64,000 nucleotides of DNA, taken from assembly GCF_988243305.1 (NCBI RefSeq), contig NZ_OZ547136.1; one strand, 5' to 3'. Under the pieces are notes generated by a model. The model did not search any database. It was not told the DNA's origin and was given only the letters and a program-made list of their open reading frames with translations. A program made the position numbers and the translations under genes. Below are positions 60,506-64,000 of the stretch, piece after piece. Positions within the stretch are counted from its first letter, which is position 1, and the number at the start of each line of letters is the position of its first letter.

Positions 60506-61306
60506 TCACCACCACGCGTGGAAGTGGTGAACCGGACCAATACCGTGACCAACTTCCAGCGTGTCGGCCTGGGCTAACGCCGATGAAAGCCAGCTTTTTG
60601 CCTCCTGTACGGTGTCAGCCCAGTTTGTATGGCGCGGGCGTAGTGCAGCCAACGCCGCAGAGAGTGTACAACCAGTGCCGTGGGTGTTTTTGGTCATAAT
60701 GCGCGGTGCGGTAAACCGTTGTTCACCCTCGCGGGTAAACAGCCAGTCCGGGCTTTGCTCATCATCCAGATGACCACCTTTCATTAGCACTGCGCCACAG
60801 CCCATCGCCAACAGCGATCGCCCTTGTTCCAGCATTTCCTGTTCGGTGCGCGCGTGTGGCGCGTCGAGCAAGGCGGCAGCTTCGGGCAAGTTTGGCGTTA
60901 TTAATGAAACCTGTGGCAATAATCGACTGCGCAGCGTAGCAACCGCCGAAGGTGAAAGCAGCGGGTCGCCGCTTTTTGCCAGCATAACGGTGTCGAGTAC
61001 CACGTTTTGGATCTGATAACGTTGCAACCTTTCTGCCACCGCTTCAACAATATCGGTTTCCGCCAACATACCGATTTTAGTGGTGTCGATTCGCACATCG
61101 CTGAACACCGAATCGAGCTGGGCGGCGACAAAATCAGGCTCAATGCGATACACCGACTGTACGCCACGGGTATTTTGCGCCACCAGTGCAGTAATCACTG
61201 AGCAACCATAAGCGCCAAGTGCCGAGAAGGTTTTAAGATCGGCCTGAATCCCCGCACCACCACTCGGATCAGTACCGGCAATCGTCAGAGCGTTAATTCG
61301 TTTCAT
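60506..61306 (-). CDS. thiD: Hydroxymethylpyrimidine / phosphomethylpyrimidine kinase
   Basis: 266-aa [30 protein letters not shown]...; 4-bp overlap with thiM. Confidence 0.95.
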
Positions 61307-62091
61307 GCCTGCACCTCCTGCGTCAATTGCCAGAGCGCATCAAGGAAATGTGGAACAAAACTGCCTGGCCCCTCGCTTCTGGCGGCTGCGCGTTCTCCGG
61401 CTTGTTTCATCCAGTGACAGGCAGATGCGACATTTTCCAGCATATCGCCTGGTAACGCACAACAGGCAGCGACAACCGCCGATAATGCACAGCCAGTTCC
61501 TACCACTTTGGTCATTAACGGATCGCCACCGTGAATACCAATGATACGATGTCCATCGGTAACATAATCCATCTCGCCAGTGACCACGACGATTGCGCCA
61601 GTTTCCCGTGCCAGTGTTTGTGCAGCGGGTATCGCGTTAGCTGCGGCGTCAGTGGTATCCACTCCCCGTCCACCATTAGCAACGCCAGCTAATGCCATGA
61701 TTTCCGAAGCATTACCACGTATGGCGGTTGGCTTATGAGACAGAAGTTCCAGACAAAAACGGCGGCGATAATCGAGTGCACCCACCGCTACTGGATCAAG
61801 CATCCAGGGTGTTTGAGAGCGTTTTGCCTGTTCAACGGCGGCACGCATCGCCTGTGCGCGTGGCTGCGTCAGTGTGCCAACGTTAATCAGCAACGCACTG
61901 GCGATAGCCGCAAACTGACTGGCCTCTTCGGTTTCGATGACCATTGCTGGCGATGCACCGAGCGCCAGTAAGGTATTGGCAGTAAAGGTTTGCACCACAT
62001 CGTTGGTCATGCAGTGCACAAGAGGGGAATGTTGGTGAAAAAGGTGTAACGCGTGCGCAGATTGCGCGGAACTCAGCAGGTCGACTTGCAT
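61303..62091 (-). CDS. thiM: Hydroxyethylthiazole kinase
   Basis: 262-aa ORF. Confidence 0.95.
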
Positions 62092-62094
62092 AGT

Positions 62095-62225
62095 TTGCTC
62101 CTGCCATAACGTGAAGAAGCAATGACCTGGTGGTCCGTGACTTCCCTACGCTGGCATTATCCAGATCAGGTGATACGGGTATTTCTCAGCCTTCACGCAG
62201 AAGGGCACCCCGAGTCGTTTGATTG
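62095..62225 (-). promoter_or_regulatory. TPP (thi-box) riboswitch in the thiM leader
   Basis: Minus strand reads ...ACGACUCGGGGUGCCCUUCUGCGUGAAGGCUGAGAAAUACCCGUAUCACCUGAUCUGGAUAAUGCCAGCGUAGGGAAGUCACGGACCACCAGGUCAUUGC..., containing the conserved CUGAGA and ACCUGAUCUGGAUAAUGCCAGCG thi-box elements. Confidence 0.9.
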
Positions 62226-62313: not shown

Positions 62314-62586
62314 TTATTTGATATAAGAATCCAGCACCTTCAGAACGACATCCAGATCTTCTTCACGTTTTAGCTCATCCCCCTGGTGAACGATGTGTTC
62401 CGTCAGATGACCTTTAATCACTTCCCGCATCAGACCGTTTACCGCGCCACGGATAGCAGCAATCTGTTGTAAAACTGCAGCGCATTCGTGCGGCTCGTCG
62501 AGCATTTTCTTGAGCGCCACGACCTGGCCCTGAATCTTACTGGCACGCGCTTTCAGTTTCTGTTTATCACGGATGGTATGAGACAT
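62314..62586 (-). CDS. rcnR: Ni/Co-responsive transcriptional repressor (CsoR/RcnR family)
   Basis: 90-aa [32 protein letters not shown]... Confidence 0.95.
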
Positions 62587-62634
62587 GGCAACACCTGGTT
62601 AATAAGAATATGAAAAATCATAGCACTATTAATC

Positions 62635-62669
62635 TACTGGGGGGTAGTATCAGGTACTGGGGGGGAGTA
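62635..62669. promoter_or_regulatory. Two RcnR operator sites (TACT-G6-N-AGTA) in the rcnR-rcnA divergent promoter
   Basis: tactggggggtagta (62635-62649) and tactgggggggagta (62655-62669). Confidence 0.8.
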
Positions 62670-62706
62670 GAATCAGATTGCCGAATTAATACTAAGAATT
62701 ATTATC

Positions 62707-63531
62707 ATGACCGAATTTACAACTCTTCTTCAGCAAGGAAACGCCTGGTTCTTCATCCCCAGCGCCATCTTACTTGGTGCGCTTCATGGCCTGGAACCAG
62801 GGCACTCAAAAACGATGATGGCGGCGTTTATCATCGCCATCAAAGGCACCATTAAACAGGCGGTGATGCTCGGACTGGCAGCAACCATTTCGCATACCGC
62901 AGTGGTCTGGTTGATTGCCTTTGGCGGGATGGTGATCAGCAAGCGCTTTACTGCTCAATCAGCAGAACCGTGGCTCCAGTTGATTTCCGCAGTGATCATT
63001 ATTGGCACCGCGTTCTGGATGTTCTGGCGTACCTGGCGCGGCGAACGAAACTGGCTGGAGAATATGCACGAGCATGATCATGAGCATCATCACCACGATC
63101 ACGAAGATCACCACGACCATGGACATCATCACCATCACGAACATGGCGAGTATCAGGATGCCCATGCACGAGCCCATGCCAATGACATTAAACGACGCTT
63201 TGATGGTAGAGAGGTCACCAACTGGCAAATTTTGTTATTTGGCTTAACCGGTGGCCTTATCCCCTGCCCGGCAGCAATTACCGTGCTGTTGATTTGCATT
63301 CAGTTGAAAGCCCTGACACTGGGCGCAACACTGGTCGTCAGTTTCAGCATTGGCCTGGCGTTAACGCTGGTCACCGTAGGCGTTGGCGCAGCAATCAGCG
63401 TTCAGCAGGTCGCAAAACGCTGGAGCGGATTTAACACTCTCGCTAAACGCGCCCCCTATTTTTCCAGTCTGTTGATTGGCTTAGTTGGTGTGTATATGGG
63501 CGTACATGGCTTCATGGGCATAATGCGATAA
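62707..63531 (+). CDS. rcnA: Nickel/cobalt efflux permease with His-rich cytoplasmic loop
   Basis: 274-aa ORF; central HEHDHEHHHHDHEDHHDHGHHHHHEHGE loop between TM segments. Confidence 0.95.
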   Translation: MTEFTTLLQQGNAWFFIPSAILLGALHGLEPGHSKTMMAAFIIAIKGTIKQAVMLGLAATISHTAVVWLIAFGGMVISKRFTAQSAEPWLQLISAVIIIGTAFWMFWRTWRGERNWLENMHEHDHEHHHHDHEDHHDHGHHHHHEHGEYQDAHARAHANDIKRRFDGREVTNWQILLFGLTGGLIPCPAAITVLLICIQLKALTLGATLVVSFSIGLALTLVTVGVGAAISVQQVAKRWSGFNTLAKRAPYFSSLLIGLVGVYMGVHGFMGIMR

Positions 63532-63749: not shown

Positions 63750-63965
63750 ATGACCATTAAAAATAAGATGTTGCTGGGTGTGCTTTTGCTGGTTACCAGT
63801 GCCGCCTGGGCCGCACCAGCCACCGCGGGTTCGACCAATACCTCGGGAATTTCTAAGTATGAGTTAAGCAGTTTCATTGCTGACTTTAAGCATTTCAAAC
63901 CAGGCGATACCGTCCCAGAGATGTACCGCATAAGGAGATCCCCTCATAATTTCCCCAAAGCGTAA
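63750..63965 (+). CDS. rcnB: Periplasmic Ni/Co homeostasis protein RcnB, apparently C-terminally truncated and fused to IS10-derived sequence
   Basis: Track ORF is 131 aa; trimmed to MTIKNKMLLGVLLLVTSAAWA... with SD ggagag. Only 71 codons before the stop, and the last ~10 codons (IRRSPHNFPKA) come from the IS10-like end starting at 63935. Confidence 0.6.
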   Translation: MTIKNKMLLGVLLLVTSAAWAAPATAGSTNTSGISKYELSSFIADFKHFKPGDTVPEMYRIRRSPHNFPKA

Positions 63966-64000
63966 CCATGTGTGAATAAATTTTGAGCTAGTAGGGTTGC
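63935..64000 (-). mobile_element. IS10 (Tn10-family) inside-end sequence with the last 18 codons of the transposase; element continues beyond the window
   Basis: Minus strand of 63944-64000 encodes ...ATLLAQNLFTHGYALGKL-stop, followed by ggggatctc, matching my recollection of the IS10 transposase C-terminus and inside end. The expected terminal CTGA is not present at the junction. Confidence 0.5.

Follow-up and report, generated by a model that had tools for sequence, protein, structure and literature searches.

Tandem G-tract sites between rcnR and rcnA of Escherichia coli and their reading as the operator of the RcnR repressor

Introduction

What is the role of two almost identical 15-bp sequences, each a run of guanines held between the short arms TACT and AGTA, that lie next to each other between two divergent genes? 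The question arises from a stretch of 64,000 nucleotides (contig NZ_OZ547136.1, assembly GCF_988243305.1), which was analysed at its full length and is referred to here as the window. The first-pass annotation interpreted the repeats as paired operator sites of RcnR in the rcnR–rcnA divergent promoter region.

The present analysis arrives at the same interpretation: the tandem sites are almost certainly the functional RcnR operator of the E. coli rcnR–rcnA locus. Judged by its sequence, this operator is already known, being base for base identical to the K-12 sequence of the cited binding work. What is added here is modest, namely a survey of how the register of the two sites is conserved and of natural variants with one, two, or three sites. 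The locus also serves as a positive control, in which a real regulatory element was recognised from sequence alone. The evidence gathered here consists of the sequence itself, its identity with K-12, gene context, the positions of published transcription starts, and conservation across species, while binding, stoichiometry, same-face geometry, and the response to metal are taken from the literature.

The rcnR–rcnA locus and its neighbours

Both sites fall inside the 120-bp intergenic region at 62587–62706, between rcnR on the minus strand (62314–62586) and rcnA on the plus strand (62707–63531). The product of rcnR is the repressor that responds to Ni(II)/Co(II) and binds both sites. It scores 197 bits against NF011613, the NCBIfam equivalog model for RcnR (cut-off 138 bits), and is identical to K-12 RcnR at 90/90 residues (100%). 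Its translation carries His3, Cys35, His60, and His64, the H-C-H-H pattern of metal ligands that is a signature of RcnR (PMC11672702), together with R14-A-S-K17, the RASK motif described in PMC3902906. The regulated target, rcnA, encodes a Ni/Co efflux pump that scores 560 bits against NF007454 and matches K-12 RcnA at 270/274 residues; the same annotation is shared by E. coli genomes at the corresponding locus. These scores and identities bear out the divergent rcnR–rcnA pair named in the first-pass annotation.

The intergenic region is identical to that of K-12 MG1655 at 119/120 bases, and the one difference (62603, T here and C in K-12) lies outside the sites. The wider region has a match in 5,381/5,426 complete E. 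coli genomes, in which the genes carry the annotations rcnR, rcnA, and rcnB. The left neighbours of rcnR are thiM and thiD, and rcnB lies to the right of rcnA.

Immediately left of rcnR, on the minus strand at 62126–62222, is a TPP riboswitch (Rfam RF00059, 71.8 bits) that lies in the leader of thiM–thiD and is also annotated at the corresponding place in related genomes. In some E. coli, such as NRZ14408 (locus 1–2860), an island with genes for an integrase, a DUF1837 protein, and a DEAD-box helicase is found beyond the TPP riboswitch, replacing the position of thiM–thiD (window 61303–62222). In part of the species, the thiM side of rcnR is thus a hot spot for integration.

On the other side of the locus, rcnB is interrupted by an insertion element. 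Its 5' part occupies 63751–63928 on the plus strand, downstream of rcnA, and identity to E. coli rcnB ends at about 63928–63930. The last 72 bases of the window (63929–64000) form the end of an ISVsa5/IS10-like element of the IS4 family, which is found in 786/5,426 E. coli genomes. Here the terminal bases of the element are GCATAAGGAGATCC instead of the usual CTGAGAGATCC, a variant end that is shared with E. coli strain 142. Among the complete E. coli genomes of the collection, none covers the junction between rcnB and the element, the best query coverage being 96%.

Sequence and geometry of the two sites

Site 1, proximal to rcnR, spans 62635–62649 and has the sequence TACTGGGGGGTAGTA (TACT-G6-T-AGTA), read in the window as tactggggggtagta. 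Site 2, proximal to rcnA, spans 62655–62669 and has the sequence TACTGGGGGGGAGTA (TACT-G7-AGTA), read in the window as tactgggggggagta. Between them, the 5-bp linker TCAGG (62650–62654) fixes the 20-bp register of the two sites. Sites and linker alike are listed without a strand.

The positions (62635–62669) and sequences given in the first-pass annotation were exact, and two of its descriptive terms hold in part. The sites were said to be 20 bp apart, which is correct for the distance from start to start and from centre to centre, while the gap between them measures 5 bp. They were also called palindromes, which applies to the TACT/AGTA arms and not to the G tract: the inverted repeat is confined to the 4-bp arms, the tract is asymmetric, and 8/15 positions are self-complementary. 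Because the G tracts are asymmetric and both lie on the sense strand of rcnA, the pair of sites forms a direct repeat of a pseudo-palindrome.

When both strands of the 64-kb window were searched for the pattern TACTGGGGGGNAGTA with up to two mismatches, the sole matches were sites 1 and 2, each with 0 mismatches. In dinucleotide-preserving shuffles, the chance expectation for TACT-G6-N-AGTA is 0.13 per window, and at least two matches occurred in 0/100 of the shuffled windows.

Position of the sites relative to the promoters

Transcription starts for both genes are available from Kim et al. 2012 (PMC3415461), whose Table S1 gives one start for rcnR and two for rcnA, with a 51-nt sequence for each. 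All three 51-mers are found exactly in the window. The main rcnA start maps to 62680 on the plus strand (25 reads, 27-nt leader; 51-mer at 62630–62680), and a secondary rcnA start maps to 62659, within site 2 (plus strand, 12 reads, 48-nt leader; 51-mer at 62609–62659). The rcnR start maps to 62609 on the minus strand (11 reads, 23-nt leader; the reverse complement of the 51-mer at 62609–62659).

Counted from the main rcnA start, site 2 occupies −25 to −11 and site 1 occupies −45 to −31; counted from the rcnR start, site 1 occupies −26 to −40. The hexamers assigned to the two promoters are putative. The main rcnA promoter appears to have the −10 hexamer TAGAAT (62668–62673, plus strand), located at −12 to −7 of the 62680 start and sharing bases with the site 2 AGTA arm. 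For the rcnR promoter, TGcTATGAT (62617–62625, minus strand), at −16 to −8 of the mapped start, is a candidate extended −10 element. Site 1 covers the −35 zone of both promoters, where the likeness to the −35 consensus is poor (TAGTAT and ACCCCC). Together, the two sites appear to overlay core elements of both promoters, an arrangement that fits occlusion of RNA polymerase and joint repression of rcnA and rcnR.

A scan for consensus promoters gave a single hit, TTGCCG-16-TATTAT at 62678–62705, which was rejected, as its start would fall inside rcnA and disagrees with the mapped starts. A role at the RNA level was rejected as well. No Rfam family overlaps the sites, and each transcript has its main start downstream of both sites, so the repeats are best regarded as a DNA-level element.

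Published binding data

The primary work on RcnR binding is that of Iwig & Chivers (J Mol Biol 2009), considered here as cited in PMC3902906, PMC7055735, PMC5146963, and PMC7105576. In these four papers, the motif TACT-G6-N-AGTA is quoted alike. According to PMC3902906, the RcnR operator is a tandem of two type 1 sites of this form, each bound 1:1. Footprinting described there has RcnR touching the arms TACT and AGTA through the minor groove, and recognition is said to draw on the A-form nature of the uninterrupted G tract. PMC5146963 adds that there is one tetramer per site and that the tetramers sit on one and the same DNA face. Blaha et al. (Biochimie 2011), known through its citation in PMC7055735, states in its title that rcnA and rcnR are repressed from one shared operator. 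Binding of apo-RcnR, and its release by Ni(II) or Co(II), likewise come from literature on the identical K-12 sequence (Iwig & Chivers 2009 and Blaha et al. 2011, through the citing papers).

The first-pass annotation had regarded the G tract as characteristic of RcnR recognition and had proposed a comparison with published RcnR footprints. The former is supported by both the quoted motif and the A-form G tract of PMC3902906, and the comparison with the footprinting described in that paper places the contacts at the TACT/AGTA arms, not elsewhere. A literature search on the wrapping of DNA by RcnR found no usable description, and operator details are absent from PMC4528141 and PMC5709419.

The operator also functions outside its native setting. 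When it was placed behind a foreign promoter, it made control dependent on cobalt and worked as a portable Co-responsive element (PMC7105576).

Conservation across species

To describe the sites beyond E. coli, the RcnR protein was scanned against one genome per species, which yielded 80 loci. The genera represented include Escherichia, Citrobacter, Salmonella, Raoultella, Kosakonia, Rahnella, Hafnia, Erwinia, Edwardsiella, and Morganella, and the survey also includes Vibrio europaeus. rcnA is divergent from rcnR in 79/80 species loci. Two strict TACT-G6-N-AGTA sites in an exact 20-bp register are present in 55 of the 80 species, and in a further 10, two TACT-N7-AGTA sites keep the 20-bp spacing while one of the G tracts is interrupted. 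In total, 65/80 species carry two sites in this register.

Among these 65 species, the sites are far more constrained than their surroundings. Information content is 1.93 bits per column for site 1 and 1.99 for site 2, in a profile that was aligned on the TACT/AGTA arms, so that the arm columns are invariant by selection while the G-tract columns and the count of registers are free of this bias. The linker is kept in length and free in sequence, with 23 different 5-mers and 0.95 bits per column, and the flanks of the sites fall to 0.32 and 0.57 bits per column. Further conserved blocks across species are AGTAGAAT, which corresponds to the putative rcnA −10 element, and TAtagCA, which corresponds to the putative rcnR −10 element on the other strand.

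Mobile and more distant copies extend this picture. A copy on an IncHI2 plasmid, with an RcnR that is 92% identical, keeps both sites and the 20-bp register, and has a different linker and unrelated flanks. On a Ralstonia megaplasmid, where RcnR is 62% identical and rcnA is divergent, there is a single site, TACTAGGGGGGAGTA. Other type 1 sites occur at more distant DmeR-like and FrmR-like relatives.

Alternative explanations

Several other readings of the repeats were weighed. That two similar 15-mers arose by chance is excluded by the shuffles, and the pair of sites is kept in dozens of genera. Another idea, that the guanine runs form a G-quadruplex, was set aside: only two G runs are present. 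The runs might also act mainly as slipped-strand contingency tracts, switching rcnA and rcnR by altering promoter spacing, rather than as protein-binding sites. Rare variants in tract length do exist, such as G8 in site 2 of E. coli strain H2, G6 in site 2 of strain 3036, and one G more or less in Citrobacter sp. R56, S. enterica arizonae, Enterobacter sp. R1, and a Morganella. However, tract length is nearly invariant: of 5,360 matching E. coli genomes, 5,359 share at least 95% identity over the intergenic region (3,685 share at least 99%), and exact G6-N and G7 tracts are found in 55/80 species. Contingency tracts are usually longer, the variants are too rare for phase variation, and single-base differences in homopolymers may be sequencing errors in the assemblies. 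Switching by slippage is thus very improbable as the main role of the tracts.

More improbable still is that the repeats are promoter elements only, consisting of duplicated −10-like hexamers and their upstream DNA, with an incidental likeness to repressor sites. It is true that each AGTA arm enters such a hexamer (TAGTAT at 62645–62650 and TAGAAT at 62668–62673), and that these lie 7–14 bp upstream of a mapped rcnA start. Promoter function nevertheless leaves unexplained why the TACT arm and the G tract are nearly invariant (about 2 bits per column, the arm columns being invariant by selection), and why the repeats co-occur with rcnR in 79/80 species. Nor does it account for the published binding and mutational data. 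Moreover, since operator and promoter overlap, the repeats can serve as both. An RcnR operator embedded in the promoters that it controls is consequently the preferred reading.

Proposed mechanism of regulation

Under this reading, the 35-bp stretch is the tandem operator of a tetrameric repressor, RcnR, which belongs to the CsoR/RcnR family. When Ni(II) and Co(II) are absent, each TACT-G6-N-AGTA site would be occupied by a single RcnR tetramer, which reads the arms TACT and AGTA as well as the unbroken G tract's unusual shape. Since the sites overlie core elements of back-to-back promoters, bound RcnR would be expected to block RNA polymerase at rcnA(B) and rcnR alike, probably by occlusion. 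The block at the rcnR promoter would make the circuit autoregulated. Binding of Ni(II) or Co(II) would then lower the affinity of RcnR for DNA, and the efflux pump would be expressed.

Natural variation in the number of sites

Most Enterobacterales have two sites and an intergenic region of about 120 bp, and departures from this number occur in both directions. Erwinia psidii, Edwardsiella anguillarum, and an Enterobacter sp. have a single site in an intergenic region of 100–102 bp, while Morganella has a single site, yet an intergenic region of 141–143 bp. In the single-site species, it is site 2 that is retained. Conversely, nine loci of the Kosakonia/Phytobacter type carry a third, weaker site (AACT-G7-AGTT) located 21 bp upstream of site 1, and their intergenic region is 141–143 bp long. 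A third RcnR site is also present in E. coli WW2, where a 23-bp tandem duplication (GGGGGGGAGTAGAATCAGGTACT) has produced an intergenic region of 143 bp (locus 1501–1643). One Escherichia sp. has a 21-bp register.

Complete loss of the operator was observed in Escherichia whittamii Sa2BVA5, a representative genome. This genome lacks the operator and both promoters along with the first ten rcnA codons, and the start codon of rcnR abuts rcnA codon 11. The loss is a 150-bp deletion between imperfect direct repeats, GGNAACNCCTGGTT (window 62587–62600 and 62737–62750; locus 1340–1480).

The occurrence of one-, two-, and three-site loci suggests that an operator module of about 20 bp is gained and lost. 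Variation in copy number is itself observed; that it tunes function is speculation. A tentative and somewhat doubtful proposal is that the operator behaves as a module of about 20 bp whose varying copy number could set the cooperativity and the metal set-point of rcnA induction, and that a disrupted rcnB, as in the present strain, could shift Ni/Co export further. The strict 20-bp register, the free linker, and the site-number variants could also guide the design of Ni/Co biosensors.

Comparison with related systems

The closest comparison is with the RcnR operator of E. coli K-12, which shares both 15-bp sites, the linker, the register, the intergenic bases other than 62603, and the RcnR protein itself. 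Apart from that base, the present strain differs in four substitutions in RcnA and in its IS-interrupted rcnB.

Among paralogous systems, the tandem type 1 FrmR operator of E. coli Pfrm is controlled by a repressor of the same family that is the closest paralogue of RcnR (76 bits with the FrmR model). This operator consists of two copies of an ATAC–GTAT site enclosing a GC tract of 9 bp. The architecture is common to both, with tandem G/C tracts and short, AT-rich inverted-repeat flanks placed over a promoter (PMC5146963). However, the FrmR operator has ATAC/GTAT arms instead of TACT/AGTA arms, a longer GC tract, and formaldehyde as the effector. An FrmR-like locus on an Acinetobacter plasmid carries a G4 version of the site.

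Type 2 operators, exemplified by that of Streptomyces lividans CsoR, also have a pseudo-palindrome with G tracts, GTA dyads, and recognition based on DNA shape (PMC3902906). In contrast to the single unbroken tract of the RcnR sites, these operators have two short, interrupted G/C tracts with about 11 bp between the arms, and each site is bound by two tetramers rather than one (PMC3902906).
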